A DNA stretch of 61,615 bases. Origin: Candidatus Firestoneibacteriota bacterium. Lineage in GTDB: Bacteria > Oederibacteriota > D2-FULL-39-29 > JBBTED01. The notes under the pieces were generated by a model. The model was not told where the DNA came from, ran no database searches, and was given only the letters and a program-made list of their open reading frames with translations. Position numbers and translations under genes: made by a program. The stretch spans positions 1 through 61,615 of the forward strand of contig JBBTED010000063.1 of NCBI GenBank assembly GCA_038042445.1. Reading direction: 5' to 3'. Of the stretch, positions 3,561-31,675 are shown in pieces; the stretch's first letter is position 1; every line of letters begins with the position of its first letter.

Positions 3561-4517
3561 TTAAGGTATAAAGGATAGGGAAATGCGATGTGTTCCTGAA
3601 ACATCATTCATAAAATTAAATGGGATTATAAATGCATAGTCAATGCCTATTTGGGAAGAATCCATAGGAAGTTTCACCCCAAATCCAACACTTGCATTTG
3701 AGTATTTGTTATTACCTATTGAATATCCGCCTCTTGCTGCAAATTCAAATGGGTCTTTTATTGAAAATTCAACACCTGTATTAATACTATAGTCTGATTT
3801 GCGCCAGTCATACTCCAAATTTCCTGTAACTGATTCTAAAAGTTTAGAGGATACTCCTGCTCTGAATAACATCGGGACTATATCTTCTTTATTAACACTT
3901 ACATCCGGTTGAGTCAAATTTTCTGCTGATAATCCAATTGTAAGATTATTGGTTAATGCTATTGGTTTTATTAAAAGCGAAATGTCTGCTGTGTATCCCC
4001 AAGCAGATGTTTTATTTGCAAACGCAGAATTTGCACTTGTATATTCATTTTCACCATACTTTTTGTTTAACAACTTTAATTTTAAACCAACATTAACCTC
4101 ATGAGTTTCTATTTTGGCATATTTTGTAGGTGAATAAGCTAAGGCCAAAGAAATAATACTTTCTCTGTAACTTGCACTTGATGAATCAGCTATTAAATGG
4201 TCCCACCCGCCTGCTAAAGTTGAATATTCTGATAATGGGTAAACATAAGATATTTCTCCCTGTGCTAAACCCGGAACCCCTACATAAAGCCTGGTATAAG
4301 TAGTTAAAAACATAAATTTTTGCACCTGAACTAAACCTGCTGGGTTATAATGCAATGCATTTACATCATCAGAAATTGCCACGAATGCCTTACCCATACC
4401 GGATGGCCTGGCGCCGCTGCCAATATCCATAAAGGCAGCATAAGAAGAAAATGCAAATGATAAAGTAAATAACATTAGAATTAAGAACATTTTAATTTTC
4501 AAATTATAATTTTTCAT
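3561..4517 (-). CDS. PorV/PorP-like (UPF0164-type) outer-membrane beta-barrel, copy 1
   Basis: Signal peptide, then AFMDIGSGARPSGMGKAFVAISDD..ALHYNPAGL; C-terminal IDYAF..P.....GTHRISL; start moved to ATG 4517 because the extension is a REP. Confidence 0.8.
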   Translation of the reverse strand: MKNYNLKIKMFLILMLFTLSFAFSSYAAFMDIGSGARPSGMGKAFVAISDDVNALHYNPAGLVQVQKFMFLTTYTRLYVGVPGLAQGEISYVYPLSEYSTLAGGWDHLIADSSSASYRESIISLALAYSPTKYAKIETHEVNVGLKLKLLNKKYGENEYTSANSAFANKTSAWGYTADISLLIKPIALTNNLTIGLSAENLTQPDVSVNKEDIVPMLFRAGVSSKLLESVTGNLEYDWRKSDYSINTGVEFSIKDPFEFAARGGYSIGNNKYSNASVGFGVKLPMDSSQIGIDYAFIIPFNFMNDVSGTHRISLSFIP

Positions 4518-4527
4518 TTTTAACTTT

Positions 4528-4650
4528 CGCAGGCTAAAGCCTGCGACTACCACTAAAATACACTAGATTCCAGCTATTTGTCAGGCAAGATGCCTGACCT
4601 ATTGCATGCGGGAATGACTTAACTTCCCTACCCCTCTTATCAGAGGGGGA
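4528..4650. repeat. Repeat cluster: GTAGTCGCAGGCTTTAGCCTGCG REP, nested composite element and a CCCCTCT/AGAGGGG hairpin
   Basis: 4528-4550 REP; 4561-4618 GATTCC...GCGGGAATGAC arm interrupted by gtcaggcaagatgcctgacctat; 4631-4649 hairpin. Confidence 0.8.
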
Positions 4651-4659
4651 TAAGAACAA

Positions 4660-7600
4660 TTATCTTGCAAGTATTACTGTGCCTTTACCTGCTACATTAT
4701 TTCCTGTTTTTATCTGGAATAAATATATTCCGCCTTCAACAACATCTCCTATAGAATTTTTGCCGTCCCAAGAAACACTTGTGGAACCTCCAGCTTGTAT
4801 TTCGTCACGAATTAATCTTCCTGTTATATCCCATATTTTCAGTCCAACATCGTCTCCTTCGTTATTCGGGAAACTAAATGTGACTTTATTAAAAACACTG
4901 TCAGGGCCCATAGGTGTAAATGGATTTGGAGACAAAGTAAGCTCTGAAATCAAATCCTGCTTTATAACTATAGCATATTTAGTAAGATGCGAAGTTTTGC
5001 CTTCTACAAGAACATTCCCACTCTTTACTTTAATTGTACTTGGCAAAATCTGCCAATTTAAACCATCCCAATATGCTACTGCCAATTTATTTTCTGCATC
5101 AGCAACTCTTGTTTTAGGATCACTATTATCAACATATATTCCATCTACACTTGGCGCACGCAAAGTAACAGTTATTGCTCCCTCAAGTGTATCTATTGAC
5201 TTGCCTGATTCAGTTGCTGTAATGTCAAAACATACTATTGCTTTTCTAGGTTGCCTTTTACCTTCTGGAGCAGTAGTAACTTTCTTTATACTATAAGATA
5301 ATGTTTTATTTATCACTCCAGCAGAAATATTTAGTTTTACTTCTGTATCATCAGCACTTGCTATTTCTGCAGCCTGGCCAGCTGGTATTTTCGAAGAAAA
5401 TATTAGTGATTGAATGGAACCAGTTTGGACCTGTGGGGTATCTCCAGACACAGTAACAGTTATGGTTTTTACCTCTGCTACTTTTGATTTGATTGTTGCC
5501 TTAACTTCACCATTAGCATCTGTAACCGTGCTCGCCTGCTCAAGTGTATTACCAGAACCACTTACAGCTATTGTAATAGTTGCATTACTTATTGCTCCAC
5601 CACCTCGGCTTTCATATTTAACAGTTACAGTTGCCAAAGTTGTATTATCTGCAGGTAATTCGTTTTTATCAGATGATATTGTTACATAAGTTTCGCCAAG
5701 CCACAAAACAGTACTTCCTGATTCTACTGAATCAGCATTACTACCAACTATGTAATTCATAAAAGATAATTTCGTACTGCTTTTTGCAGTTACATTAGTT
5801 CCAGATGAAATATCATCAAAAGTACATCCATTTAGTGTTTTAGTCTGACCATTTGAAATATTCAAATACGTTCCAGCAGCCTGGCCCTGCCTGAAATCAA
5901 CATAATTTAATTTATTTATTGTTGAACCAGTACTTATCACTAAACCACTTGTATTTGTTCCTTTTATTGTTAAACCACTTATATCTAATGTTCCACCTGC
6001 CACATTCATTCCATAATATGTCCCAGTTTCCTGCGACTTTATTGTGGCTTTATTATTAGAACTTGCATTACAAGTAAAAGCTCCATTTATTGTTATAGTT
6101 TTACCTGAATACACTTCCCAATTAGCACCTGAATTAAGTGTTACAACTTTTCCAGTTGCGATTGTGTAATCCCCTGTTATTAAAGTGCCTGATATTGTAG
6201 CTGCATTTAATGTAAGAGTGTATAAATTTTGTGTGCTAAGTGTGCCACCGAAAGATATATTAAAATTGTTTGAAACTGTGCAATTTCCAGCCAAATTAGC
6301 CCAACCAACAATATTCAAATTATACCAGGTTGTTGATGTTATAGGATTTGTATCACCTGTGGAAGTTGTATAAGGAAAACTTCCACCTGCAAAATTAAAA
6401 GTGCTTGTTCCAGCAGATATAGACAAATCTGCATTAGTAAGTGTTCCTTTTGTTACAGAACCTCCACTGCTATTGCTATTAGTTGCAGTATTGATAACTG
6501 ATGGTGTATACCCACCTGTTACTGTCCATGTGCTTGAACCTGCATCTATTCCAAGACGAGACATATTTATTATCCCAGCACTAACATTACCTGAAGCACC
6601 AGAAGCATTATTTGCAACCATTGAAATATAAGGATTTATAGTTCCAGTTACTGTCCATTTACTACTTTCAGCATTTATATAAACTTTACCAGTAATTGAA
6701 GCACCTGATATTGTCCTATTGCAATTAGCACTATTAGTATAATTATATATACTTGCATACATATTAACACTACCTCCGAGTGTCCAAGTGCTTGTTCCAC
6801 CATTTATTATCGCACTGCCAGCAATTGTTCCAGGAGTAATTGCATTTGTAGAAGTAGATGCACTATTATCATAATTTAAACAATATAAATACATATTTAC
6901 AGAGCCTGTAATATTAAATGTGGATGAACCTGCATCTATCCTTGCTTCAGTATTTGAATCCATACCACCAGATGAAGCATCTATTGCACCAGTTAAAGTA
7001 ACCGCATTAGTATAAAAAGTTTGCTGAAGATATATATTTAAATTATTTGTAACATTCACAGTTCCTCCGTTTTGCCCATTTAATATAACTTTACAATTTG
7101 TCCAAGCAAGTACAGTTTGAGAAGAACCAGTCGCTAGAATAGTTTTATTCTGATAAATATTTAAAGTACCACAAGTCAAAGTTTTGCTATTTAAATTTAG
7201 AGTCATAGAATAAGCATCACGAGCAGTAACAGCAGTGTAATATAGATACATATTAAAAACACCTGTAGTTTTTAAATCTCCTGCAAGTGTAACAGTAGAA
7301 GTAACTGCAGCAAACTGCCGAATAATTATAGTACCAGTATAATTTGTATATCCGGGAATTGAAGCAGTAGCTCCTGTAACAAGAAACGTAATATTTACAG
7401 TTATTGCAGTAGTATCAGAAATAATAAGATTACCAGCATTAGCATCACCATAACTGTATATATTTAGTGTTCCACTACCACCAACATTTGCAAAAGTACC
7501 ACTTCCAAGTGTAACCGTGCCATAAGCATCAACAACCTTTGAAGAAGGTATAGTTGTTGTAGTACTTGGCTGTGCGCAGGTTAGATTATAAAATGGTGCA

Positions 7601-8772
7601 TTACCACTACCATCTGTTTCAACTGTACCTGTTCCACTAAGGGTAACTGTTGAAGTACTTCGGACAAAATATGCAGTGGTAGCTGTAGCTAACCAATTGC
7701 CTGAACAAGTTATTAAACTCGTTCCTGAACAATTAATTCTTCCAAAAGCACCTATTGTAATATCATTTGCTGAAAGGCCTGTAGATGAACTTGCTGCTAT
7801 ACTTATCTGAGCACGATCATTTGAATCAGTGCCAGTAAGTGAAATATCGCCAGTTACTGTGCAATCATAAGTGCTTATATTCAATACCGTATCAGCGGTC
7901 CCATTATTATTATCCAAAATTGTTAAATTTCCGCCAATAGTTAAATTGGCTCCAAGTGTCATTATACTACTTGCATTTCCTGCAGAAGTAATACCTAAAT
8001 CACCGTCTATTGTAAGTGCATTGCTAACAGTTATTGTTCCTGTATAAGTGCTAATTGAAAAAGTTGTAAGCGAATTTGCAGGAGCTACATTCACTGTGCA
8101 ATTAGCACTACTTGTAGCATTAAATGTAACAGTATCACCAGCAGCCTGCCCCGGATATGTCCCATCATTTAAATCCCAGTTTGTAGTTGTGCCCCAATTA
8201 TTATCCCCACCGCCATTATTCCAAACAAAATTTTTAGCATAGCAAAAAGCAGGAACAATAAGTATTATTGCAAGTATTATTGTAGTTGCTGATTTATCAG
8301 CGGTTTTTTTTGCCGATGGGCCTGGAACTACTGATTTCGCCGATGAATCGGCAACTACATTATAGATTTCTTTTAAATCTATTTTTTCTTTCAATGGATT
8401 ATTTTTTATATATTCGCGGATTTTATCCAACGCTTTTTCTGTTCTTATTATATGTTCATAATAACCTGGTTGCCATAACCTCCGACCAGATTCCAAAGAA
8501 CACTTGGATTTAAATCTCCTAATTATTTCACCTAAACTAAATTTAGCCCCATCTAAAACCACAATTAAATGAAAATGATTGTTCATTATTTGATAAAAAT
8601 CTATTTTTACCCCACTAAATTCATCTTCAATTTTCTTTGTATGCCGCAGAATTATTTCTTTTTCTACATCAGAAAAGTTTAGATGATAATTACTAGAAAT
8701 AGTTACAAAGTAAAAACCATTTGTAGTATAGTCATATTGTTTCAACCGTATATTTTTTATTGTTTGTACCAT
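4660..8772 (-). CDS. Fusion ORF: N-terminal RAYT (Y1 HUH transposase) domain + translated REP cluster + signal h-region + large beta-rich surface protein with Ig-like domain and T9SS-like CTD (cargo 1)
   Basis: aa 1-137: RLKQYDY..GFYFVTI, MNNHFH (HUH), WQPGYYEHIIR, YIKNNP; no stop before VVADSSA...DKSATT-IILAIILIVPAFCYA; C-terminal PNPFTP...IWDITG...WDGKN...GKGTVILAR. Confidence 0.8.
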   Translation of the reverse strand: MVQTIKNIRLKQYDYTTNGFYFVTISSNYHLNFSDVEKEIILRHTKKIEDEFSGVKIDFYQIMNNHFHLIVVLDGAKFSLGEIIRRFKSKCSLESGRRLWQPGYYEHIIRTEKALDKIREYIKNNPLKEKIDLKEIYNVVADSSAKSVVPGPSAKKTADKSATTIILAIILIVPAFCYAKNFVWNNGGGDNNWGTTTNWDLNDGTYPGQAAGDTVTFNATSSANCTVNVAPANSLTTFSISTYTGTITVSNALTIDGDLGITSAGNASSIMTLGANLTIGGNLTILDNNNGTADTVLNISTYDCTVTGDISLTGTDSNDRAQISIAASSSTGLSANDITIGAFGRINCSGTSLITCSGNWLATATTAYFVRSTSTVTLSGTGTVETDGSGNAPFYNLTCAQPSTTTTIPSSKVVDAYGTVTLGSGTFANVGGSGTLNIYSYGDANAGNLIISDTTAITVNITFLVTGATASIPGYTNYTGTIIIRQFAAVTSTVTLAGDLKTTGVFNMYLYYTAVTARDAYSMTLNLNSKTLTCGTLNIYQNKTILATGSSQTVLAWTNCKVILNGQNGGTVNVTNNLNIYLQQTFYTNAVTLTGAIDASSGGMDSNTEARIDAGSSTFNITGSVNMYLYCLNYDNSASTSTNAITPGTIAGSAIINGGTSTWTLGGSVNMYASIYNYTNSANCNRTISGASITGKVYINAESSKWTVTGTINPYISMVANNASGASGNVSAGIINMSRLGIDAGSSTWTVTGGYTPSVINTATNSNSSGGSVTKGTLTNADLSISAGTSTFNFAGGSFPYTTSTGDTNPITSTTWYNLNIVGWANLAGNCTVSNNFNISFGGTLSTQNLYTLTLNAATISGTLITGDYTIATGKVVTLNSGANWEVYSGKTITINGAFTCNASSNNKATIKSQETGTYYGMNVAGGTLDISGLTIKGTNTSGLVISTGSTINKLNYVDFRQGQAAGTYLNISNGQTKTLNGCTFDDISSGTNVTAKSSTKLSFMNYIVGSNADSVESGSTVLWLGETYVTISSDKNELPADNTTLATVTVKYESRGGGAISNATITIAVSGSGNTLEQASTVTDANGEVKATIKSKVAEVKTITVTVSGDTPQVQTGSIQSLIFSSKIPAGQAAEIASADDTEVKLNISAGVINKTLSYSIKKVTTAPEGKRQPRKAIVCFDITATESGKSIDTLEGAITVTLRAPSVDGIYVDNSDPKTRVADAENKLAVAYWDGLNWQILPSTIKVKSGNVLVEGKTSHLTKYAIVIKQDLISELTLSPNPFTPMGPDSVFNKVTFSFPNNEGDDVGLKIWDITGRLIRDEIQAGGSTSVSWDGKNSIGDVVEGGIYLFQIKTGNNVAGKGTVILAR

Positions 8773-8801
8773 ATAATTATAGCCGATAAATCGGCGACTA
8801 C
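8282..8801 (-). mobile_element. RAYT1 module: RAYT domain flanked by REP-1 copies
   Basis: REP-1 at 8782-8801 upstream and a 77-bp REP cluster at 8282-8358 downstream of the HUH domain. Confidence 0.85.
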
Positions 8802-9886
8802 AATTCTGTTAATGTTAGTGAAACTCTATGTGTGCCTGTAACACCCTCTGCAAAATTTAATGGGTATATGAATGCATAATCAAGAGTAGAATGGACAAAA
8901 CCCAGTGGAAGTTTCAGACTAATGCCTCCACTTGCATCTGTGTATTTTCTGCTGCCGTAGCTTACTCCTGCTCTTAAACCGAAATTAGTCCATGTGTCAG
9001 GCAAGATGCTTGACCTATTAGCTGATGAATTAGATGCCGATAAATCGGCAACTACAGGACCAAACAACCAGTATTCCACGCCGTTATGGATGCTCCAATC
9101 AATGCCTCTTATTTTAAATTCAAAACTTTCAGTTAAATTATAGTCTAATTTTGCTGAGAAACCTGCTCTTATTATTGATGGAACTGAGCTTGTTGCAGCT
9201 ATACCCATATCCGGCTCATTTATATTTGTCAAAGAAAAACCTAAATTAAACTCTTCAAATATCACATCTTTCATTTTAAATAATGCTCCTATATCTATGC
9301 CAAAATTCCATTTATTTAAAGTAGTAAATAATGTATTTGCTTTTGTCCATTCATTTTCTATATATTTTTTATTTAATGCTTTTATATTTAAGCCAACTGC
9401 CATTTTAAAATTGGGTTCTGTTTTTTGTGCCGATAAATCGGCAACTACATTTTTTGACGGTGATATGGCAAAACTGATGCCATATATACCTTCTGCATAT
9501 CCTGCATCTGCACCTGATAAATTAAATGTAGATGCCATAAGCCCAAGTTTAAAATGCTTGGAAAACGGATAAATATATTCTAATGTTCCGTCATATAAAG
9601 ATTCAGGTATGCCCTGATATAATTTCGTATAAGTGGCAGAAAAAGTCATTTTGTCAATAAAAGCCATACCTGCAGGATTATAGTATAAAGCATTTGCATC
9701 ATCTGCAAGTGCAACAAACGCTTTACCTAAAGCAGAGGGCCTGGCGCCATAACCTGTGTCCATAAAGGCAGCATAAGAAGAAAATGTAAAATGAAAATTG
9801 CAAATTACAAAAGTAAGAATTAAAAAAATATTTCTACTTTTTCTTTTGAATTTTACACTTTGCAATTTACAATTTACAATTTTCAT
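8798..9886 (-). CDS. PorV/PorP-like beta-barrel, copy 2, with two in-frame REP insertions
   Basis: AFMDTGYGARPSALGKAFVALADDANALYYNPAG...GTHRVSLTLTEL; stop TAG is the GTAG of a REP. Confidence 0.8.
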   Translation of the reverse strand: MKIVNCKLQSVKFKRKSRNIFLILTFVICNFHFTFSSYAAFMDTGYGARPSALGKAFVALADDANALYYNPAGMAFIDKMTFSATYTKLYQGIPESLYDGTLEYIYPFSKHFKLGLMASTFNLSGADAGYAEGIYGISFAISPSKNVVADLSAQKTEPNFKMAVGLNIKALNKKYIENEWTKANTLFTTLNKWNFGIDIGALFKMKDVIFEEFNLGFSLTNINEPDMGIAATSSVPSIIRAGFSAKLDYNLTESFEFKIRGIDWSIHNGVEYWLFGPVVADLSASNSSANRSSILPDTWTNFGLRAGVSYGSRKYTDASGGISLKLPLGFVHSTLDYAFIYPLNFAEGVTGTHRVSLTLTEL

Positions 9887-9958: not shown

Positions 9959-12900
9959 TCATTTTGCTAATACTATTGTGCCTTTTTTAGCTACAGTATT
10001 GCCTACTTTCAGCATATAAATATATACACCGTCTTCTTCTATATTCCCTTGCTCATTTTTGCCATCCCAGGATAAACTTTCTCCATAACTTGCGGTTATT
10101 TCTTTGATTAGTATTCCTGTTAAATTCCATATTTTTATACTTACTGCTTGAACACTTGCATTTGGGAATGAAAACTGAACAGAGTTAAAACTGCTATCCC
10201 CGCTTAAAGGCATAAATGGATTTGGAAATACTTTCACTTCTGTAATAGGAATTGACTTAACTATAACTGCGAATCTTGAAAGATGATCAGTTTCACCTTC
10301 AACTAAAATATCCTTGCCATCACCAGATACAAGGACAGTTGAAGTTAATTCAGCCCACCTTTTTGAACTTTCATCCCATCTTGCTAATGTTAATTTGTCC
10401 GGAGCATCACTTATTCTAACAGCTCTGTTTGTATCATCTACATAAGTGCCATCTCCTGTAGTGTGCAATGTTATTTTTATTTTGCCGGAAAGCTGGCTTA
10501 CTTTAGACGAAGTACTATTATCAGTAGCCCATATATCATATACTACTACTGTATCTTTTGAACCAATAACTGCAACAGTTACTTCACTTGATAAAACTTT
10601 ATCAATATGAAAATTTAAACTCTTGTCAAGAACACCACCTGGAATATATACTTTTGTTTTATTATCATCTGATGAATAAAGAGAAGCTTCCTCACCTACA
10701 TTCACTAATGTATTAAAATTTATACTTGAATTTTGATATGTTATAGTTGCAGTGCTATCACCTTCAACGCTCGCTGTTATAGTTTTTACTTCTGATTTTG
10801 AAGATTTAACTGTAATTTGAACTTTACCATCAGTATCTGTAACACCAGAAGTTCCACTTACTGTATTACTGGTTCCACCTACTGTAATATTAATTGTCCC
10901 CCCTGGAATAGGGATATTAGCACGAGAGGTCAAAATTGCCGTAATAGTAGCTATACTTATATTATCCGCTCTGACTGAAGAAGAAGAAACAGAAACTGTT
11001 AAAACATTTCCGTTTGCCCACACAACACTTGAACCTGATTCCACAGTGTCCCCATTTGTTCCAACAGTATACCCTATAAATGTAAGTTTTGTGCTATTTG
11101 AAACTTTAACATTTTTACCAGATGAAATATCACTAAAAGTACAACCTGATAATGTTTTAGTTGCACCATTTGAAACGTCTAAATGGACACCACTTGCTTG
11201 CCCATTTGCAAAATCAACTGAATCTAATTTAGTTAATGTAGAAGCACTATTTATAACAAAACCATTTATATTTAAATATGATAATTGCAAACCTGAAACA
11301 TCTACTTCCCCACCTATACATCTCAATCCAAAAAACGAAGCAATATTAACAGAACTGATAGTTGGTTTTGAAGTATTAGTAGACGGGCAATAAAGTTTTC
11401 CGTTTATTGTTATTGTTTTGCCATTATTAAGATACCATGCTGAACCGCTATTTAAAGTAGCAGTTTTCCCTGAAGCAAGAAGGACATCATTAGTTGTCAT
11501 AACACCTGTATTAGTAAGCCCTCCATTTAGAACAAGAATATTTGTGTTTAAAGTTCCTGTATTGGTTAATAAACCTGCTACAGTTAAAGTGCTTGTATCA
11601 TTAGTTGAAAATGTACCACTGTTGCCAAAAGTCCCATTTAAAACCAAATTAGTCGCGTTAATACTTGATACAACAGAATTATTAGTTAATATACCTGTTA
11701 CAGTTAAAGTGTATGAACTCAAATCAATATTATTATTTAATGTAAGATTATTATTTACTGTCCCATTTTTTGTTAATGTAATTGCTCCGGTTAAATCCAG
11801 ATTATACCATGTGGTTGATGTTATAGGATTTGTAGCACCACTTGCACTAACAACTGGAAGATTTGCAGTATTTGAGAATTTAAAAGAACTTGTACTACTT
11901 GATATTGTTAAATCAGCATTTGTTAAAGTTCCTATATTAGCAGCACCTGCCCCACCTTGTGTGGCAGTATTTGTAACACTTGGATTATACGTTTGACCTA
12001 CTACCCATGTGCTTGCTCCTGCATCTATACCTATTCTTCCCACATTCATTGTTCCAGATGAAAGAGCATTTGAACTGGTATTACTTACAGTCATTGTTAC
12101 ATAAGGATTGACATTACCCGCTACATTCCATGTGCTATTTCCTGCATCAATATACGCTTTACCTGTAATTGAACCACCTGATATAGTTGCAGATGTAGAA
12201 GCACCTGTTGTAGAATAGTCCATACTTGCATAAGTATAAACACTACCTCCTACTGTCCAAGTGCTTGTGCCACCATCTATCACTGCATTTCCTGCAATTA
12301 TACCTTGTGTAACTGTCATATCACTTCCATTTGTAGAAGAACTATCCAATAATAAATATACTTTTACAGAACCTGTAATATTAAATGATGCTGAACCTGC
12401 ATTTATTCTTGCTTCAGTATTTGAATCAAAAGTAGAAGCTCCAGCATTTACTGTATCATCATCGGTTTCAGCATCACCAAAATAACGTTGGCGTAAATAT
12501 ATAGATACACTGTCAGAAACATTCACTATCCCACCACTTGCTCCGCTTAGTATAGCTTTACAATTAGTAAAATTTAAAGGAGTATATGTAGCAGAACCCG
12601 AAAGATTTAAAACTCTGTAACAATAAACATTTAAATTAGTACAAGACAAAGTTTTTCCATTTAAATTTAACGTTATAGAAGTATTCGCCAAGGCATTAAC
12701 AGTATTATTATTAATATATACTTCAACAGGCCCTGTGTTTCTCACATCACCAGCAAGAGTAAGTGTTCTGGAAGAACTATTATTAGGATAAATATAGAAT
12801 ATCCCATAATTCTGATATGCAGGCAAAGAAGCATCTGCTGAAAGATTAAAAGCTAAAGCAGTACTTATTGCAGCCGGATTACTAGAAACATCAAGAGAAG

Positions 12901-14960: not shown

Positions 14961-14969
14961 TTTATTTTT

Positions 14970-15018: not shown

Positions 15019-15019
15019 A

Positions 15020-23638: not shown

Positions 23639-24201
23639 AATTTATATTTTATGTTACTTTTTTGTACCTTTTGTTCTTGTAGCTTTTGTTCTTGTAGCTG
23701 CAAAGCGATAGCTTTGCTATCGTTTTTGCAATTGCATGCTTTAGCAGAGCTTCGCTCTGCCGCTACATTATAAAATTGTTTTACATCTATCTTTTCTTTA
23801 TATGCATTGTTATCTATATATCCCCTAATTATAGTTAAAGCATTTTCATTTCGTATTATATGTTCATAGTAATTTGGTTGCCAAAATCTTTTTTCATTAA
23901 ACCCATTATTTTTTATATCCAAAGTAGACTTAGATTTAAAATATTGAATTAGTTGAGGTAATGATTTATCCGTTCCCTCTAAAATTAAAATTATATGTAT
24001 ATGTGTAGGCATAATTTTATAATAATCTAATTTTACACCTTTATATTCAGATAAACTTTGTAAATGATTTTCAATAGTTTTGTTATAGTTTAAGCAAAGC
24101 TGACGCTTTGCAGCTACATAACTACAATGTATTGTTACAAAATAATAGCCATTTGTAGAATAATCATAATGTTTTAACCGTATATTTTTACGCAATTTCA
24201 T
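23635..24201 (-). CDS. RAYT (REP-associated tyrosine transposase), copy 2
   Basis: RLKHYDY..GYYFVTI, MPTHIH (HUH), FWQPNYYEHIIR, YIDNN; start moved to ATG 24201; C-terminus reads through its REPs. Confidence 0.9.
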   Translation of the reverse strand: MKLRKNIRLKHYDYSTNGYYFVTIHCSYVAAKRQLCLNYNKTIENHLQSLSEYKGVKLDYYKIMPTHIHIILILEGTDKSLPQLIQYFKSKSTLDIKNNGFNEKRFWQPNYYEHIIRNENALTIIRGYIDNNAYKEKIDVKQFYNVAAERSSAKACNCKNDSKAIALQLQEQKLQEQKVQKSNIKYKL

Positions 24202-24288
24202 AAATATTTGTTTTGTTGCTTTTGTAGTTTTTTGTAGCTGCAAAGCGTTAGCTTTGCTGTTGTTTGCAGAGCTTCGCTCTGCCGCTAC
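23694..24288. mobile_element. RAYT2 module flanked by direct copies of a private REP doublet
   Basis: gtagctgcaaagcg(a/t)tagctttgc...gcagagcttcgctctgccgctac at 23694-23766 and 24234-24288; single arm inside the gene at 24094-24117. Confidence 0.85.
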
Positions 24289-24325
24289 AAAAACAGCTAC
24301 ATAAATTAAACAAAATACATTACCA

Positions 24326-27025
24326 TTATTTCGCTACTATTATTGTGCCTTTGCCAAGCAGACTATCTGCAAGTTTAATCTGATAAATGTAAACGCCGCT
24401 CTCCACTATGCTTCCATCTTCCTTTTCGCCGGACCAGGATATTCTTGTGCCACTTCCTGACAAAACCCTGATTAGATCACCTGTAATATTCCATATCTTG
24501 ACTTCTGCAGTTTCATAATTATTATTTAAAAAAGAAAAATTAGCGATACTTAAATTAGAATTACTTGAAAGTGGCGTAAAAGGATTTGGTGAAACTTCCA
24601 ATTCTACACTTTTACCTGTTGAATTTACCACGATTGCATATTTGCCAAGCTGAGTAACTTTGCTTGATATAGTTATATCATTTCCACTTATGCTAATTGT
24701 TCCACCAATAGGGATCCAATTCATTCCATTCCAATAAGCTAATGTCAAAGATGTTCTTGCATCACTTAATAAAACTACTGGGTTGGAATTTGCTATTATA
24801 AAACCATCGTATGACTTACAATGCAAAGTTATAGTAACTGCTTTGTTAAGATTTTTTAGAAGTGCATTGCTAACATTATCATAAGCACTAAATTCATAAG
24901 CTGTTACTGCAACAGATGGCTCAAAACTACCAACAGGCGGTGATGTAAGTTTTGTTATGTAGTAAATTGCTCCATTTATAGTTGTCCCTGTTGGTATTGA
25001 TATTTTCACAAGAGAATCCTCAGGATATGTAAATTCGTATGATTCTGCTTTTAGAACCAATCCACCACCATTTAATTCTTCAGTTGCTGAAACAAAACTC
25101 GTTGGCTCTGAAGTCACTATGGGCCTTGTCCAACCATCTATTGTATCCTTAAAATTAGCAAAAAATGAAGCGCCTTTATACATTCTTGATTCTGTTCCTT
25201 TAGTATATATATCTAAAACATCCTGATCTGAAATAGGAAATTTATACAGTGCAAAATCTGAAATTATTGCATTCACATTATAATTCTTGCCTCCACCAAT
25301 ATAAATATATGGACCTAATATTTCAGGAAGCCGTGTATTTGAACCAGTTCCAGCTTTCACTCCATCTACATATAAAGTAATATACCTATCCCACCATTTA
25401 ATGACAATATTATGCCATTCATAACCAGTCCAACCTGCGCCTGCAGTATTAAAATTTGGAGCACTATACTGTGTTGTGCCTACAGGCCCACCCCATACTG
25501 CAAAATACAATCTATTATCTGTATCCCGATATATTATAAACTGGTGATAATCAGTTGCCACATTTTCAGAAAATAGAACATTATATGTGCCATCACTACC
25601 TGTCCACCTTGGATTTATCCACATAGATATACTACCACTCGTTATATCAAATATACCATTTGTTGGATATGCAAGACGTTCAGGTGATCTTATTGGATAA
25701 GCTGAAGTAACTATAACATCGGTAAAAACATAACTTGTTCTTGGGACCACAATATTAGAATCTAACCAATCCCTTTCAAGTTGATAACAATCAACCCAAA
25801 CACTTCTTCCTGCAATACTATCTGCTTTTTTAACTTTAACACCACAAAACCACATTACATTTGTTACTCCTGTAAAATATGCAAATATGCGGTACCAACC
25901 ATTAACAATAGGAACAGAATAAGTTGTAACTGGAACATCATAAGATACGGAAGCAGTAGCAGCATGTGTAGCAGCAGTTGTTCCAGAACTCCCTCTTACG
26001 ACTCCCAAAAAACTTGTAGTAGTTACACTGGTATACTGCATTATTTCATTATCAATCTTTAAATAACCATTAGTCGCTGGGAAATTAGTAGTTGAAGTAA
26101 CAACAATTATAGAAGTACTACTATTAACAGCATAAGTCAATTGTGATTCCAAATTTGTTGTAGCAAAAATAGAGCAGACTGAAATAGGATTGGTTCCATC
26201 ATAATAAACATAAGCAGATGCAACATGAGGAGTCGAAGTCAATATTCTTAACATATAAAAACTGGCATCTGTTGTTGTAGAGTAATTTGTAACTTTAGCA
26301 GAATAAGTTCCATTTAAAGCACGTGTATTATCTATCACAGCACCTATTCCAGTTTCTGCGAGCCAACTCCTGGGAGAACCAGAAGATACTTCAGAAGTTT
26401 CAAAACTTGAGTCTGGAATAAGATTTTTAACTCCCTGCTCCTGTAATATACCTTTATCAAATTTTCCTGCTACAAATCTTGGAATATTGCGGTTAAGACT
26501 TTTAATTTTATTATCTATTGGATCTAAATAAGTGGCAACACCATCAGTTTCAGCACCACTTGTTATCATATCAGGCCTTGAAAAAACACCTGGAACAACT
26601 GTATAAATATTTTTTAAATCTGATGGCGCTAAATCTGTCTCCTGTGGTGCATCATAATATATATAATAATTACTGTCACTACTATTTGCAGCAATTGCTG
26701 TCTGGAGTTTAAACCATGTTTCATTTACTGCAACATAATCCCTATCAAGTTGGACATTTTTTGAACCATCCCAGTAGACAATTCGTAAATCTTTCCTATC
26801 AGACTGAATTTTACCAGCAGTAACCAAAGAAGATGTATCAAAACTTGTTCTCACAACATATCCTTTAGGCACAGCATAAGCACCTGTTGAAATTGTTAAT
26901 TGCCGCCTGTTATGATATTTCCCATTCCACCAATCAACAGCAGAAGCAGAAGAAATAAATGCAAAATGTAAAATGAAGAATGCAAAATGCAAAATTTGTA
27001 TTTTTTTCACTAATAATTTTCTCAT
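24326..27025 (-). CDS. Secreted DUF2341-like/LamG-like protein with T9SS-like CTD (cargo 5)
   Basis: DWWNGKYHNRRQLTI; SGSISMWI...LYVDG...ISDFALY; PNPFTP...IWNITG...GKGTIIVAK; paralogous to cargo 3. Confidence 0.75.
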   Translation of the reverse strand: MRKLLVKKIQILHFAFFILHFAFISSASAVDWWNGKYHNRRQLTISTGAYAVPKGYVVRTSFDTSSLVTAGKIQSDRKDLRIVYWDGSKNVQLDRDYVAVNETWFKLQTAIAANSSDSNYYIYYDAPQETDLAPSDLKNIYTVVPGVFSRPDMITSGAETDGVATYLDPIDNKIKSLNRNIPRFVAGKFDKGILQEQGVKNLIPDSSFETSEVSSGSPRSWLAETGIGAVIDNTRALNGTYSAKVTNYSTTTDASFYMLRILTSTPHVASAYVYYDGTNPISVCSIFATTNLESQLTYAVNSSTSIIVVTSTTNFPATNGYLKIDNEIMQYTSVTTTSFLGVVRGSSGTTAATHAATASVSYDVPVTTYSVPIVNGWYRIFAYFTGVTNVMWFCGVKVKKADSIAGRSVWVDCYQLERDWLDSNIVVPRTSYVFTDVIVTSAYPIRSPERLAYPTNGIFDITSGSISMWINPRWTGSDGTYNVLFSENVATDYHQFIIYRDTDNRLYFAVWGGPVGTTQYSAPNFNTAGAGWTGYEWHNIVIKWWDRYITLYVDGVKAGTGSNTRLPEILGPYIYIGGGKNYNVNAIISDFALYKFPISDQDVLDIYTKGTESRMYKGASFFANFKDTIDGWTRPIVTSEPTSFVSATEELNGGGLVLKAESYEFTYPEDSLVKISIPTGTTINGAIYYITKLTSPPVGSFEPSVAVTAYEFSAYDNVSNALLKNLNKAVTITLHCKSYDGFIIANSNPVVLLSDARTSLTLAYWNGMNWIPIGGTISISGNDITISSKVTQLGKYAIVVNSTGKSVELEVSPNPFTPLSSNSNLSIANFSFLNNNYETAEVKIWNITGDLIRVLSGSGTRISWSGEKEDGSIVESGVYIYQIKLADSLLGKGTIIVAK

Positions 27026-27039
27026 AATATTTCTTTTTT

Positions 27040-27133: not shown

Positions 27134-27277
27134 GAGCTTGTGCCAAAACTCCATTTTGTCATCCTGAACACATTCGTTTTACTCAGTGTAAACTCCGTGA
27201 AGGATCTCGTTTTTAAAAGACTTTTAAACGAGATTCTTCGGCTACTGCCTCAGAATGACACCTTTTGGCACAGGCTC
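27134..27277. mobile_element. MITE-like element with 15-bp terminal inverted repeats, flanked by TGAC direct repeats and containing a nested GTCA...TGAC hairpin
   Basis: gagcttgtgccaaaa / ttttggcacaggctc (1 mismatch); TGAC at 27130-27133 and 27278-27281; inner element 27158-27259. Confidence 0.6.
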
Positions 27278-27289
27278 TGACGCTTCGCA

Positions 27290-28261
27290 TCATTTAAACA
27301 CAACTCCGAACTTATGTGTTCCATACACAGATTTAATTCCACTTAAGGAATAGATAAACGCATAATCAATACCTATCCCATGTTTTAAATAAATACCTAA
27401 ACCTGTTGTTGCATCCCAAAAATTATAATTGCCAAAACCTGTGCCAAGACGTAAAGCTATATTATCACCAAATAAAAAGTGTTCAAGTCCAATTCGTATT
27501 TTATAAAATGCGGCACGAAAATCAACATCTGATGCAAAAATGGTATCAGCTTTTGCACCTAATCTATAGGCAAAACCGCTACGAATACTAAATGACACAG
27601 GATTTGAATCACCTGTAAAACTTAAAGATGGCGTATTTGCATTCAAAAATCCAGCCCCAAAGCTAAACCGAGCAGATGGCTTAAATAAAATACCTACATC
27701 TACTGCAAAAGTAGAATCATAAAATTTTATTAACGCAGAATTTATATCTGTGTATTGATTCTTTTCAAGAGAAATTGATAACATTTTAAAATTTGCACCT
27801 ACATATATCTCTCCAAAAGTTATTTCAAATACTGCTAAAGGTAAAACAAAATTATCCATAACTTTAACACCGTAGCCAAAATGAAATTCTTCTTCCCCAT
27901 AAGAAGAAACAACACCTCTTCCTGTCCAACCTAAAGATACTACACCCAAATCAGATGGAATTGGATGCGTATAATAAATTGCTCCATCAAATATTTTGCT
28001 TTCATCTGTAAGACCAATGTATAATCTTGAATATTGCAAAGACAATTCACGTCGGGCAAGAAACCCAAGCCCTGCAGGATTATAAAAATACGTTGCACCA
28101 TCATCTGCAATTGCAGTATAAGCACCACCTAAAGCATCTGCACGTGGAGAAATACCGGAATCCTGAAAGGCAGCAAAAGAAGAAGTAGCAAATTGCAAAA
28201 TGAAAAATGCAATAGCAAAAATCAAAGAAATATTTTTTTTGTTAGTTTTTTTACTTTTCAT
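27290..28261 (-). CDS. PorV/PorP-like beta-barrel, copy 5
   Basis: AFQDSGISPRADALGGAYTAIADD...YFYNPAGL...IDYAF...GTHKFGVVFK. Confidence 0.8.
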   Translation of the reverse strand: MKSKKTNKKNISLIFAIAFFILQFATSSFAAFQDSGISPRADALGGAYTAIADDGATYFYNPAGLGFLARRELSLQYSRLYIGLTDESKIFDGAIYYTHPIPSDLGVVSLGWTGRGVVSSYGEEEFHFGYGVKVMDNFVLPLAVFEITFGEIYVGANFKMLSISLEKNQYTDINSALIKFYDSTFAVDVGILFKPSARFSFGAGFLNANTPSLSFTGDSNPVSFSIRSGFAYRLGAKADTIFASDVDFRAAFYKIRIGLEHFLFGDNIALRLGTGFGNYNFWDATTGLGIYLKHGIGIDYAFIYSLSGIKSVYGTHKFGVVFK

Positions 28262-28602
28262 TTTTTATTATCTTCCAATATAGATTTTATCTGCTTTTTT
28301 AAATTTGGCAATTCATGTTTTATGTTTTCCCAAACTGCAGAAATATCTACCCCAAAATATTCATGAATTAGTATATTTCGCAATCCTTTCATACTTTTCC
28401 ATGGTATGTGCGGATAATTCTTTTTAATCTCGTCTGAAATATTCTTACTGGCTTCGCCAATTATTTCAAAATTTCTTATAACCGCATCTATAGTTTTTCT
28501 ATCTTTTTCAAATTCCTCAAATAAAATATTTTCTGTGTATTTTTCTATTAAAATTATAGAATCAAAAATATGCTTAAGGTAAATTTTGTAATCTTTATCC
28601 AA
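28258..28602 (-). CDS. HEPN (DUF86/HepT-like) toxin
   Basis: DAVIRNFEIIGEA...IPW..M.GLRNILIHEYFGVD with R-X4-H motif; TTG start overlapping the MNT gene. Confidence 0.9.
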   Translation of the reverse strand: MDKDYKIYLKHIFDSIILIEKYTENILFEEFEKDRKTIDAVIRNFEIIGEASKNISDEIKKNYPHIPWKSMKGLRNILIHEYFGVDISAVWENIKHELPNLKKQIKSILEDNKK

Positions 28603-28885
28603 TCGCTTCTGCCTCTCTTAAAATATATGGTTCTACATATTTATTTAATCCATTTTTTGACACCACACTCACATCTTTTTCTAAAATTTCTGAAAGACAA
28701 TTTTGAAAATCAATAAGTTCAAATAATGTCACATCTTTATCAAATTCCACAAGAAAATCTATATCGCTATTTTTTTTTTGTTCATTTCTCACATAAGAGC
28801 CAAAAAGTGAAATAGATATCACTTTGTATTTTTTTAAAAGTATTTCATTTTTTAATATAATATTTTTAATTTCTTCTTTTGTCAT
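28595..28885 (-). CDS. Minimal nucleotidyltransferase (MntA-like antitoxin)
   Basis: LFGSYVRNEQ..SDIDFLVEF; 96 aa; directly upstream of HEPN. Confidence 0.9.
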   Translation of the reverse strand: MTKEEIKNIILKNEILLKKYKVISISLFGSYVRNEQKKNSDIDFLVEFDKDVTLFELIDFQNCLSEILEKDVSVVSKNGLNKYVEPYILREAEAIG

Positions 28886-28894
28886 TTTAAACCT

Positions 28895-29033
28895 GCCGAT
28901 AAATTTTCTCTCTTTCGGCGACTACAGATCCTTCGCTTCGCTCAGGATGACGCTTCGCGCAGATCCTTCGCTTCGCTCAGGATGACGCTTCGCGCAGATC
29001 CTTCGCTTCGCTCAGGATGACGCTTCGCGTCAT
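28895..29033. repeat. Interrupted REP-1 followed by three tandem 35-bp units
   Basis: agatccttcgcttcgctcaggatgacgcttcgcgc starts at 28926, 28961 and 28996; the last unit ends in the ATGACGCTTCGCGTCAT hairpin. Confidence 0.9.
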
Positions 29034-31675
29034 TTTGCTACTATTACTGTGCCGTTATATCTGGAATTTCCTACTTCTATTTGCCAGATATGTATTCCGC
29101 TTTCAACAACTGTATTAGATGAATTAACACCTGTCCATTCAATATTTTGTGATGAAGAAAATGTATCCTCTCGGATCAAAGCGCCCTCAAGATTGAAAAT
29201 TTTAAGAGACACTGAATTACCTTCAGCATTATCAACACTAAATACAACTTTATTATTAGGAGAATAATTTGGGGTAAATGGATTTGGGCCAAAAGCAATA
29301 CCGCCTTTCTTTTCAACCATAACCATTATAGTAAGTGCCTGGCTAATAAGACCTGTGCCTTTTGCTTCAACTATATAAAATCCAATCATTTTAGTTTCGT
29401 TTGAAGACAACGTATAACTAACCAAACCTGTTAAATCTGTACTTGTATTTACAACATATTGGCTTTTATCTGGCCTTGTAATTGTAATAGTTATCGCTAT
29501 ATTAGACAAAGGATTCCCTGCTTCGTCTTTTGCCGACCAATTTAAAACAACACTATTGCCTGTTATAATATTTTGATTGCCAGATGTTGGAACTAAATTC
29601 TTACTGCTTTCAGAACTAACACTAATTGTTGGCTCAGATAAAACTACAGGTCTTTTATATGCATTTAAGCTATTTGCAAATGGAGCAAAAAATACTGCAT
29701 CAAAAAGACACAAAGGCTGATATGTTCTACTATAAATTGCCCTTATTTCTGCATCAGTTAATACTCTATCATAAATAGCTACATCTGAAATAATAGCTTC
29801 AGGATTATTATTACCAGGTGCAAAATACATTCCGTTACTATAATCTCCTACAATAGACGATTTCATAGAATTTGCATCACTACTTGCCTGGTAATCCGAA
29901 TTAACAAAAATTTTTGCACCTTCACTACCCCAGGTATATGCAAGGAAAATCCAGCCATCTGTATCTAAATGTGTAAGACTGCCAAAATAACTTGAGTTTG
30001 ATATGTAATAGTCTAAATTCTTCAACAAAAATGGAGATGGCAAAACAAAATCCACATACGAACCAGATAATTTAAATACATCTGTCAATTGCCTACGCCA
30101 TCCTGTAAATTTCATATTGTTACTATCGGACCCATAAAATCTTAATATATGATATTCTGACGCTGTTACAATATAAAAATAATTGTACACACCTATATCA
30201 CCTGCAATACTACCATATCTTGTATCAGTCGTATAAAACTCAGGTTTCACCCACATAACCAAAGTTCCTTTATCTCTATTAAAATTTCCTGAAGTAATTG
30301 GATAATATAATGTTTCAACAGCACGTGTGGTATTCGAACTTGGATTTGCAACTAATGGTGGAGTAAAACTTGTAGGATGAAAACTTTCTTCAATCTGAAC
30401 ACAATCTATATCTACAGAACCACCACCATCTTGATAATAGAAAAACGCCACCTGTAAATATCTAACGTTTGAGGTCGGAACTATATATTTAAGCCAAAAT
30501 CTCTCCCACGTATTTGCCTTTGTGTTTCTTATATTCATTGGAGTTATGTCAATTCCAGAACCTGTTGCAGGAATATTAGCATTATAAGTAGTACTATCTA
30601 CTTTCCATCCTATAGGAGCAGCTGATGAAGTTATATTAGAACCAGTAGAATCAATATTTCTTATTCCTACCATATATCTTGCAGAAGTACTACTTGCCCT
30701 TCCATACCAGGAAATTATAACTGTTTTCCCATCCCAATTTGTTGATGAGCTACTAGGATCATACAGCATAACATTTTTTGCAATTGCTATTCCACAATTA
30801 GTACTTGTTCCATTTCCAAGACGCACATAACCACTACCTTTTGCTCCACCATCGCTTTGCCGGGATATTCTACCGCTTGAACCACCTATGCTCGTATCCC
30901 AATCCGTAGAAGGATTTATACCTATATCATTCCAATTTGAAAGATCTGTTTCAAAATCTGTATTTATAATATAATTTCTGACATATCGTTCAAGCAGTAT
31001 TCCTCTGTCATACTTGCCGTAAGTAAAACGTGGTGTATTAGTTCCTACTTCTGTTAAATCGTCCGGCTGGCATGCACTTGACCCTCTGGTAAAATTTGGT
31101 ATTTGCGCCACAAATATTTTATCAAGATTTTTTGGTGGAAATTCTGTCTCTTTTGAATTTCCATAATAGATATAATAATTTTCATCTATTGCACCTGTAA
31201 GTATATTTGTTTGTAATCTAAAATAAGTGGAAGAAACTGAATATACCAAACCAGTATCTAATGTTATATCATTATAATTGGAGTCCTGGTCAGGAACATA
31301 ATATCTATCTAACTCTGTCCATGCTAAACCGTTCCAATAAAGAATACGCCAGTCTTTTCTATCCGGCGTGATTCCTGTAAATGCCTGAAGCCCGCCTGTT
31401 TTTTGCAAAGCAATTGTATCAACTGAAAGTTTGACAACATAATTGGTATCTAATGTATAAGGTACAGTATTTGTAATTGTAATTTTTTTTCTGTATGTAT
31501 AGCCGGTAAAATCTTTATTTCCCACTATAGTAGGCCAAGGCAAAGAAGCAGATATACAAGCAGAAACAAATGCAAATTGCAAAATGTAAAATGCAAAATG
31601 TAAAATTAAAGAATTAGTAATAAATTTTCTTTTTCTTAATTTTGCAATTTTCATTTTGCAATTTTCATTTTGCAT
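29030..31675 (-). CDS. Secreted DUF2341-like/LamG-like protein with T9SS-like CTD (cargo 6)
   Basis: YTYRKKITITN; KGTLVMWVKP...ISDVAIYDRVLT; GPNPFTP...IFNLEG...NGTVIVAK. Confidence 0.75.
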   Translation of the reverse strand: MQNENCKMKIAKLRKRKFITNSLILHFAFYILQFAFVSACISASLPWPTIVGNKDFTGYTYRKKITITNTVPYTLDTNYVVKLSVDTIALQKTGGLQAFTGITPDRKDWRILYWNGLAWTELDRYYVPDQDSNYNDITLDTGLVYSVSSTYFRLQTNILTGAIDENYYIYYGNSKETEFPPKNLDKIFVAQIPNFTRGSSACQPDDLTEVGTNTPRFTYGKYDRGILLERYVRNYIINTDFETDLSNWNDIGINPSTDWDTSIGGSSGRISRQSDGGAKGSGYVRLGNGTSTNCGIAIAKNVMLYDPSSSSTNWDGKTVIISWYGRASSTSARYMVGIRNIDSTGSNITSSAAPIGWKVDSTTYNANIPATGSGIDITPMNIRNTKANTWERFWLKYIVPTSNVRYLQVAFFYYQDGGGSVDIDCVQIEESFHPTSFTPPLVANPSSNTTRAVETLYYPITSGNFNRDKGTLVMWVKPEFYTTDTRYGSIAGDIGVYNYFYIVTASEYHILRFYGSDSNNMKFTGWRRQLTDVFKLSGSYVDFVLPSPFLLKNLDYYISNSSYFGSLTHLDTDGWIFLAYTWGSEGAKIFVNSDYQASSDANSMKSSIVGDYSNGMYFAPGNNNPEAIISDVAIYDRVLTDAEIRAIYSRTYQPLCLFDAVFFAPFANSLNAYKRPVVLSEPTISVSSESSKNLVPTSGNQNIITGNSVVLNWSAKDEAGNPLSNIAITITITRPDKSQYVVNTSTDLTGLVSYTLSSNETKMIGFYIVEAKGTGLISQALTIMVMVEKKGGIAFGPNPFTPNYSPNNKVVFSVDNAEGNSVSLKIFNLEGALIREDTFSSSQNIEWTGVNSSNTVVESGIHIWQIEVGNSRYNGTVIVAK

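Follow-up and report, generated by a model that had tools for sequence, protein, structure and literature searches.

A tandem array of cargo and PorV/PorQ-like barrel genes in Candidatus Firestoneibacteriota, a probable locus of type IX-like surface sorting

What brings six large exported proteins to the cell surface, and what holds them there, when their genes are interleaved with genes for outer-membrane barrels and lie directly behind a type IV pilus/type II secretion system (T2SS)-like cluster? The question is raised by an array at positions 3561 to 31675 of contig JBBTED010000063.1 of a Candidatus Firestoneibacteriota bacterium (assembly GCA_038042445.1). The whole stretch analysed, 61,615 nucleotides, is called the window below; it is contig C63 of a 2.81-Mb genome (G000) in 181 contigs with an estimated completeness of 90%. 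The initial annotation, read from the DNA alone, had proposed a surface-display system of barrels and C-terminal domains (CTDs), possibly exported through the adjacent secretin. A display system built of type IX secretion system (T9SS) parts is what the evidence supports, with predicted 14-strand barrels of the PorV/PorQ family, T9SS-type CTDs and a confidently predicted interface between them. We consider it probable that the array consists of tandemly expanded cargo-plus-anchor modules of a T9SS-like sorting system, exported via an SprA-like translocon.

Cargo tails, barrels and their pairing

Six large open reading frames (ORFs), here called cargo, end in one common domain of about 95 amino acids (aa), as seen both by alignment and with a hidden Markov model (HMM) built from the six window CTDs. 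The domains are 39-50% identical to that of cargo 2, with 17 invariant columns (among them PNPF, W.G and GT..A), and each scores 123-151 bits with our HMM (E 1e-37 to 1e-45, far beyond chance). Towards their N-termini the cargo proteins are unlike one another, with Big_1 domains in cargo 1 and 2, NHL repeats in cargo 4 and Laminin_G_3 in the other three, and by eye the translations begin with signal-peptide-like stretches. Interleaved with the cargo are five paralogous barrels, 32-44% identical to barrel 2. Both groups had been described in the initial annotation, and both stand. The genes are the following:

4660..8772, minus strand: cargo 1 ORF, 1370 aa; N-terminus like a REP-associated tyrosine transposase (RAYT; NF047646 63.5 bits), repetitive extragenic palindromic (REP) units, signal peptide, repeat-rich body, Big_1 (47 bits), CTD (TIGR04183 18.7 bits, own CTD HMM 147.5 bits)
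9959..13831, minus strand: cargo 2, 1290 aa; Big_1 (47.3 bits) and CTD
16533..19601, minus strand: cargo 3, 1022 aa; Laminin_G_3 49.2 bits, FlgD_ig 27.5 bits, TIGR04183 25.2 bits (cut-off 23)
20177..23638, minus strand: cargo 4, 1153 aa; NHL-repeat propellers (NHL 94.6 bits) and CTD (own HMM 139.3 bits); without an adjacent barrel
24326..27025, minus strand: cargo 5, 899 aa; Laminin_G_3 47.7 bits, CHU_C 24.4 bits, own CTD HMM 140.9 bits
29030..31675, minus strand: cargo 6, 881 aa; Laminin_G_3 37.1 bits, Big_1-like domain, TIGR04183 18.9 bits, own CTD HMM 123.4 bits
3561..4553, minus strand: barrel 1, 330 aa; directly downstream of cargo 1; NF033709 102.2 bits; 42% identical to barrel 2
8798..9886, minus strand: barrel 2, 362 aa; two in-frame REP-derived inserts; NF033709 67.2 bits, PF11751 25.3 bits
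13959..14960, minus strand: barrel 3, 333 aa; NF033709 86.2 bits; signal peptide from a perfect 4.6-copy heptamer repeat (14855-14886)
15020..16435, minus strand: barrel 4, 471 aa; NF033709 74.6 bits (residues 25-318); Glu/Lys-rich C-terminal tail of about 150 aa
27290..28261, minus strand: barrel 5, 323 aa; the most divergent; NF033709 54.0 bits, PorQ NF033711 33.2 bits

The family of the tails was assessed on 24 CTDs of the genome, aligned and scanned alone, with TIGR04183 and TIGR04131 matches counted at E <=0.01. All 24 matched TIGR04183 (type A) as well as the CTD part of the PorU model, 20 matched the PorZ tail, and 9 matched TIGR04131 (type B). The Pfam families found were CHU_C (21 CTDs), FlgD_ig (19) and Por_Secre_tail (17); the CHU_C matches of the window proteins, at 16.9-24.4 bits, lie under the cut-off of 27. 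The type A cut-off of 23 bits is reached by cargo 3 as a whole protein and by the isolated CTD of cargo 2 (26.0 bits, and 17.6 bits with TIGR04131, cut-off 35), the other whole window cargo scoring 18.7-18.9 bits. An AlphaFold2 (AF2) model of the CTD, with a mean predicted local distance difference test (pLDDT) of 88, has its best fold matches in the Protein Data Bank (PDB) with PorZ (5m11), PorU (6za2) and the translocon-bound NucA CTD (8glk_D, root-mean-square deviation (rmsd) 2.9). The CTDs are of T9SS type, falling between types A and B and nearest the tails of PorU and PorZ.

For the barrels, 23 from the genome were aligned and TIGR03519 matches were counted at E <=0.001. NF033709 and NF052325 matched all 23, PorV 15, PorQ 13, and the PorP/SprF model TIGR03519 9. 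Within the window only barrel 1 exceeds the cut-off of 90 bits of NF033709 (the PorV/PorQ family), barrels 2-5 matching at E 1e-14 to 1e-24; genome-wide, 12 of 26 NF033709 matches are above it. Further and weaker matches of the window barrels are to PorV2, PorV, PorQ and PorP/SprF models. TIGR03519 (cut-off 90.55) gives 23.4-27.7 bits in the window and no match for barrel 5, PF11751 (cut-off 22.3 bits) is reached by barrel 2 only, and the PorV equivalog NF033710 (cut-off 250) is not reached, barrel 1 scoring 41.2 bits and the best E among the 23 barrels being 1.1e-24. NCBIfam includes a 'putative type IX sorting system protein PorV2' model, to which all 23 have weak matches and whose existence implies that its curators are aware of variant type IX systems. 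Modelled with AF2, barrel 2 forms 14 strands (pLDDT 81.8). Foldseek aligns it with FadL-family barrels at E 1e-11, and the highest query-normalised template modelling (TM) scores, together with the lowest rmsd for a full-length barrel, are those of chain F of the T9SS translocon entries 8gl6 (TM 0.60, rmsd 5.0) and 6h3i (TM 0.59). We take this chain to be PorV, the entries being identified by their titles alone. By sequence the barrels are thus classed as PorV/PorQ-like rather than PorP/SprF-like. In a quick tree barrels 1-4 form one group (approximate likelihood ratio test 94) within an unresolved cluster that also holds the SprA-linked barrels of relatives described below, and barrel 5 stands apart on a long branch. 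Many barrels of the genome carry periplasmic extensions, with LysM, LpoB, TPR or caspase domains.

A complex was predicted for one pair, barrel 2 (residues 40-362) with the CTD of cargo 2, the gene directly upstream, alongside three controls. The pair scored 0.91 and the best of the three controls 0.01; the mark of 0.91 is attained by 116 of 157 solved complexes and by 2 of 215 mismatched pairs. At least 98% of the contacts are shared between runs, and the pLDDT of the partner is 87 or more. On the barrel side the predicted contacts involve the loops between strands 1-2, 3-4, 5-6, 7-8, 9-10, 11-12 and 13-14, which by the usual topology of such barrels is the predicted extracellular face; on the CTD side they involve the conserved PNPF, KIW, GVYIY and KGT motifs. 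For this pair, then, the barrel-CTD interface supposed by the initial annotation is predicted.

Pairing of cargo and barrel genes is a rule throughout the genome and across phyla. Counted by iterated HMMs, the genome has 28 barrel ORFs and 26 that end in a CTD; 19 of these 26 CTD ORFs, spread over 14 contigs, have a barrel gene within 1 kb on the same strand. The paired barrel mostly lies directly downstream of the cargo gene and on three contigs (C155, C18 and C21) upstream of it; in the window only four of the six cargo genes have a barrel gene as their immediate downstream neighbour. Among relatives of the same class, 30 matches to window-type barrels were listed in 12, and in 15 loci that cover 18 of these 30 an adjacent CTD ORF occurs 13 times. 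A scan with the barrel alignment against one genome per species yielded 80 loci in other phyla, from metagenome-assembled genomes (MAGs) labelled Elusimicrobiota, Poribacteria, Spirochaetes, Zixibacteria, KSB1, Gemmatimonadota and others; in 62 of these loci a CTD ORF adjoins the barrel. Over 18 pairs, CTD and barrel identities co-vary (Mantel r 0.58, with 0 of 5000 permutations as high), and the 14 dispersed pairs alone give r 0.48, likewise with 0 of 5000 permutations as high.

A putative SprA-like translocon elsewhere in the genome

Profile scans with NCBIfam and Pfam gave no match in the window to SprA, PorK/L/M/N or the catalytic part of PorU, in agreement with the initial annotation, which had also suggested a search of the genome for SprA. 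That search found an SprA-like ORF outside the window (C87:24881-30109, 1742 aa; TIGR04189 225.9 bits over five collinear segments, cut-off 200). In the phylum, each of the 31 sampled genomes has an SprA-like ORF, of 1450-2252 aa except for a 959-aa fragment cut off by a contig end; of these genomes 21 are at least 90% complete and several consist of 1 to 7 contigs. PorV-family barrels are likewise encoded in all 31, each genome having between 8 and 54. Two families supply the four relatives (G004, G005, G010 and G012) that carry window-type barrels in small cargo-barrel arrays near the SprA-like gene, at a distance of 2.4 kb with only lptF and lptG between (4 of the 15 loci).

Other T9SS parts were not detected. 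GldL and GldM (TIGR03513 and TIGR03517) gave no match in this genome or in any of the 31 phylum genomes, and GldN none in this genome; these searches had no positive control, having been silent in 14 control genomes as well, and no positive control matched anywhere. The GldM search was also silent in the phylum to which an Ignavibacteria MAG belongs (26 genomes) and in five genomes of other phyla with cargo-barrel pairs, all five of which encode SprA-like ORFs. GldK reached at best 69.8 bits (cut-off 350), in stand-alone ORFs of the formylglycine-generating enzyme (FGE) type, and no PorK/L/M/N-like operon was seen beside the three GldK-like matches. The PorU model NF033707 was matched at 25 places in the genome, in its CTD positions only (about 955-1094). 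Peptidase_C25 (PF01364) gave no match in this genome and matches above cut-off in 2 of the 31 phylum genomes; this negative is better founded than the others because the search did find the family there.

A canonical T9SS might nevertheless operate as in Bacteroidota, with its PorL/M-, PorK/N- and PorU-like proteins too diverged for recognition or encoded in unassembled DNA. The missing positive control for GldL, GldM and GldN, the tenth of the genome estimated to be absent and the strong divergence of the genome's own SprA all speak for such a system; yet GldL and GldM were silent in 31 of 31 genomes, including the nearly complete ones, the Peptidase_C25 search that works in two relatives finds nothing here, and the GldK-like proteins are stand-alone, far under cut-off and without L/M/N-like neighbours. 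On balance we regard a canonical but diverged system as unlikely.

The T9SS-like explanation that we prefer would proceed as follows. The large adhesin- or lectin-like cargo would cross the inner membrane by Sec, as its signal peptides suggest. Passage through the outer membrane would use the genome's single SprA-like translocon, encoded on another contig; we infer this from its presence, its co-occurrence throughout the phylum and its linkage to such arrays in four relatives. The CTD beta-sandwich would then be caught by the extracellular loops of a barrel of the PorV/PorQ family, usually the one encoded next door, a step that is supported by the predicted interface and by the genomic pairing. 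The CTD would probably remain uncleaved and the barrel serve as a permanent surface anchor, considering that no sortase was found, that cargo and barrels stand at about 1:1 and that the CTDs resemble the tails of PorU and PorZ. The array itself would have grown by local duplication of modules in a region rich in REP/RAYT and other selfish elements. Extraction from the translocon may need a source of energy other than a motor of the GldL/GldM type, none of which was detected.

Several points weigh against this explanation. PorV-CTD complexes have already been solved, as described in PMC10994853, and for that reason the complex score may mirror likeness to a known structure rather than binding by this copy; nor does one folded pair say anything on the specificity of cognate barrels and CTDs. 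Neither cargo 4 nor cargo 5 is followed directly by a barrel gene, and six cargo genes face five barrels. Nearest neighbours among CTDs and among barrels agree in only 10 of 18 cases, and the Mantel signal is what would be expected if modules duplicate as units, with two near-duplicate pairs of loci inflating it. The SprA-like protein has no phmmer match among PDB sequences and none to any SprA family in Pfam, so that its identification comes from one HMM; the SprA-like copies of the relatives fall below the cut-off of that model, that of G005 at 171.2 bits. The genome is only 90% complete. The GldLM motor is required for T9SS transport in Bacteroidota according to PMC10994853, and since no motor was found, either the mechanism differs or the motor was missed.

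A bolder version of the same explanation, to which we give somewhat less than even credence, is that of a stripped-down type 9 sorting system outside Bacteroidota, made of an SprA-like translocon, T9SS-type tails and one private PorV/PorQ-like barrel per cargo, without GldLM, PorK/N or sortase. Extraction in such a system would be powered or biased otherwise, for example through a capture by the barrel that is irreversible. All 31 genomes sampled from the phylum appear to have the system, and it could be the ancestor of the elaborated machine of Bacteroidota. As far as our searches go, the genome and the whole phylum keep three T9SS parts only, namely the translocon, a large number of carrier barrels and the tails. 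Should the motor be truly absent, these bacteria must have another solution for the step that in Flavobacterium is known to require energy, and one barrel per cargo would be the general design from which a shared PorV shuttle is derived.

Two observations concern the surroundings of the SprA-like gene. Directly upstream of it (C87:30055-32498, or L010:14056-16499) lie genes for an ABC_tran_2 protein (396 bits) and an ATP-binding cassette (ABC) ATPase; GldA is the second-best match of the ATPase, at 199 bits (cut-off 402.6). ComF is encoded just downstream of SprA, immediately so in relatives and behind a nitroreductase-family ORF in this genome.

Anchors and shuttles in known sorting systems

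Barrels of this family hold exported proteins in Porphyromonas gingivalis, where PorZ is anchored by PorQ and a PorQ-PorZ subcomplex is reported to form without PorU or PorV (PMC10947112). The likeness lies in the PorV/PorQ-family 14-strand barrel that, in the PorQ-PorZ and PorV-PorU pairs, holds a surface protein exported by the T9SS, and in the tails, which in the array genome match those of PorU and PorZ in family (24 and 20 of 24) and in fold. The array differs from the P. gingivalis pairs in that they are here multiplied to about 26 cargo genes and 28 barrels per genome, with the genes adjacent, and in that the cargo is adhesin- or lectin-like instead of being part of an attachment complex; a sortase or attachment to anionic lipopolysaccharide (A-LPS) is not evident.

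A second comparison is with type B systems. PorP/SprF-like barrels, often encoded beside their cargo, are described as anchors of type B proteins, some of them tied to the cell wall through PorE-like partners (PMC9143113; PMC12618676). Just as in SprB-SprF, PG1035-PorP and the Fjoh pairs of Flavobacterium johnsoniae, a cargo gene here adjoins that of its own FadL-family barrel (19 of 26 cargo genes), and several barrels bear extensions of the LysM, LpoB or TPR kind. The sequence families differ, however, since the array barrels and CTDs fit the PorV/PorQ and type A models better, and the host is here outside Bacteroidota. With the SprA-PorV-CTD structures of F. johnsoniae (6h3i, 8gl6 and 8glk) the array genome shares an SprA-family ORF, the PorV-like fold of the barrel and the seating of the CTD on extracellular barrel loops, which is predicted here and solved there. 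Its SprA is shorter, with 1742 aa as against the 2319 positions of the model, which it matches in five separate segments, and a GldLM motor, a PorK/N ring and PorU were not detected. By analogy the array can be seen as building on two known principles, the anchoring of PorZ by PorQ and that of type B cargo by PorP/SprF-like barrels.

The barrels might instead act as shuttles only, carrying cargo from the translocon and then releasing it or handing it over, so that none would be a permanent anchor. PorV does so for type A cargo (PMC10994853), and all 24 aligned CTDs of the genome match the type A model. One general shuttle would suffice for this task, yet there is about one barrel per cargo gene; a PorU-like protease was not found in the genome; and the periplasmic LysM, LpoB and TPR extensions of many barrels suit fixed anchors. 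The best matches of the CTDs, moreover, are the tails of PorU and PorZ. These two tails stay attached, uncleaved. A pure shuttle role appears improbable to us, and we retain the barrels as probable anchors.

In papers on the T9SS, PMC5317091 among them, the system is described as confined to Bacteroidota or to the Fibrobacteres-Chlorobi-Bacteroidetes (FCB) superphylum, with TIGR04183 exclusive to FCB; dependence on a proton-driven motor is likewise described. We found no description in the literature of such a system in this phylum or outside Bacteroidota. The adjacency rule offers a simple route to surface proteins and their anchors in uncultured phyla.

Pilus cluster, selfish elements and repeats

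The array lies downstream of the pilus cluster in the direction of transcription, and the initial annotation had noted that cargo and barrels share their orientation with the secretin, the pilins and PilB/C; all genes of the array region, cargo, barrels and pilus/T2SS-like cluster alike, are indeed on the minus strand. The elements at the junction are:

35254..45839, minus strand: type IV pilus/T2SS-like cluster (TIGR02538 631.9 bits, TIGR02120 361.4, TIGR01175 125.8, Secretin 140, PilO 22.2)
44139-45839, minus strand: PilB, first gene of the cluster
35254-36924, minus strand: secretin, last gene of the cluster
35110..35234, no strand: palindrome (15-bp stem) and three REP units, between the secretin stop and the likely ATG of the next gene at 35107
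31781..35107, minus strand: protein of about 1108 aa between secretin and array, with an N-terminal transmembrane segment and without CTD; likely start ATG 35107

In the direction of transcription the order starts with PilB and PilC, three pilin-like genes and PilM(N), after which come a gene of the PilO type, one for a LuxR-type response regulator and the secretin gene. The ~1108-aa protein, cargo 6, a HepT/MNT pair, barrel 5, cargo 5, a RAYT and cargo 4 follow, and then a GIY-YIG ORF, cargo 3, barrel 4, barrel 3, cargo 2, barrel 2, cargo 1 and barrel 1, with RodZ, YajQ, RimO and PgsA at the downstream end. From the secretin stop to the likely start of the ~1108-aa gene there are 146 bases, and from that gene to cargo 6 there are 105.

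Such closeness and common orientation, together with the undetected GldLM-type motor that leaves another energy source to be supplied, are what favours the proposal of the initial annotation that the cargo is exported by the adjacent secretin machine and anchored by cognate barrels. Secretin orthologues of same-class relatives, full-length and 44-48% identical by blastp, were followed at 8 loci (10 stretches, with 4 to 32 kb downstream covered). Four of these retain the gene order (PilC, pilin, two minor pilins, PilM(N), PilO-like, secretin), but a CTD ORF is missing from all 8, as are the ~1108-aa protein and the response regulator; in L048 there is a single weak barrel match, of 39.8 bits, 5 kb away. 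Conversely, matches to PilB, PilC, pilin, PilM or secretin are absent from all 15 loci with the relatives' nearest barrels, and a pilus gene occurs near 1 of the 80 loci of other phyla, where PilB is matched at a distance of less than 10 kb. Cargo-barrel pairs lie on 14 contigs, among which that of the window is the only one with a secretin match, and the genome's other secretin-like matches (C134, C158 and C72) lie on contigs without barrels or CTDs. With this unconserved linkage, an SprA-like gene in 31 of 31 phylum genomes, and a strong palindrome and REP units following the secretin, export through the adjacent secretin as a T2SS/T9SS hybrid is very improbable and is set aside. The other result that would have told against the initial annotation, a complete canonical T9SS elsewhere in the genome, was not obtained, as GldL, GldM, GldN and PorU were not found. 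The position of the array behind the pilus/secretin cluster is most likely particular to this lineage and not mechanistic, and adjacency to a pilus operon alone appears a poor guide to mechanism.

The ~1108-aa protein could be placed in no family of Pfam or NCBIfam, and neither a paralogue in its own genome nor a counterpart at the secretin loci of relatives was found; with cargo proteins of two relatives it has in common a stretch of 100-140 aa only, at 32-35% identity. Beyond the cluster an exported protein of 653 aa (47103-49064) combines a BNR/Ycf48-like propeller with two FlgD_ig domains and OmpA_C. Its architecture resembles that of PorE, a wall-binding T9SS component, although the match to the PorE model covers the OmpA part only (26 bits, cut-off 600); its signal peptide is of the heptamer type found in the array. 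PilB has an MshE-type cyclic-di-GMP-binding N-terminal domain (59.3 bits, cut-off 38), and just beyond the array lies a gene for a YajQ-family cyclic-di-GMP-binding protein (2198-2695). Pilus and adhesin array may be under common cyclic-di-GMP control.

Inside the array lie further genes that the initial annotation had not listed: another RAYT, a HepT/MNT pair and a gene of the GIY-YIG type. The intergenic gaps hold no barrel or CTD remnants (all scores <1 bit), and Rfam gave no match at gathering scores in 3000-37500. The inserted elements and the repeats listed with them are:

23635..24243, minus strand: RAYT, 202 aa (NF047646 68.4 bits, Y1_Tnp 43.5 bits)
19762..20046, minus strand: GIY-YIG nuclease-domain ORF of 94 aa, standing alone between the genes of cargo 4 and cargo 3 (PF01541 64 bits)
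28258..28885, minus strand: HepT-like RNase toxin (114 aa; PF01934 112 bits) and MNT nucleotidyltransferase antitoxin (96 aa; PF01909 56.8 bits)
14855-14886, 16372-16403, 26957-26995 and 31568-31606: heptamer repeats of 4.6-5.6 copies (plus-strand unit AAAATGC); that of barrel 3 is the only perfect one

The GIY-YIG ORF, flanked by repeats of 86 bases and 21 bases, is probably the insert of a selfish element that does not belong to the system. The HepT/MNT pair is inserted between cargo 6 and barrel 5, and upstream of it in the direction of transcription there are three perfect copies of a 35-base repeat (28925-29029).

REP hairpins with GCCGAT-N-ATCGGC or GCTGAT-N-ATCAGC cores inside GTAGTTGC...GCAACTAC palindromes are about ten times denser here than in the genome as a whole: window positions 3400-35300 hold 18 in 31.9 kb (0.56 per kb), and the genome holds 160 (0.057 per kb). 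They are found for example at 3488, 8288, 8339, 8782, 9036, 9429, 9906, 13776, 14976 and 14999, and further at 16484, 16508, 31727, 31752 and 35115-35160. Two RAYT copies lie among them, that at 23635-24243 and the N-terminus of the cargo 1 ORF, whose residues 1 to about 135 are a RAYT-like transposase. There is no ATG, GTG or TTG between the REP units and the signal peptide of cargo 1, and for this reason the gene may be disrupted or fused. In barrel 2, REPs at 9036-9049 and 9429-9442 are in frame and give VVADLSA-type inserts (residues ~147-153 and ~279-286); the AF2 model places both in turns on the periplasmic side, away from the loops predicted to bind the CTD, and the second has a low pLDDT.

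The tandem heptanucleotide repeat encodes the 'ILHFAF' core of four signal peptides, two in barrels (3 and 4) and two in cargo proteins (5 and 6). Since a unit of seven bases would shift the reading frame on slipping, the repeat could be a phase-variation switch. No copy-number variants were seen over 14500-34499 in the contigs of four DNA runs from four studies, contigs that cover the array but break at repeats. Joints between signal-peptide repeats do occur in these contigs; their sides measure 36 letters at most, and they were treated as assembly cross-links. A short GC-rich element between cargo 5 and barrel 5 (27100-27135), GTCATTCCCGCGAAAGCGGGAATCC, reaches summed contig depths of 160-1340 in four metagenome runs, where the background is about 1-10, and is therefore a repeat common to many organisms in those samples.

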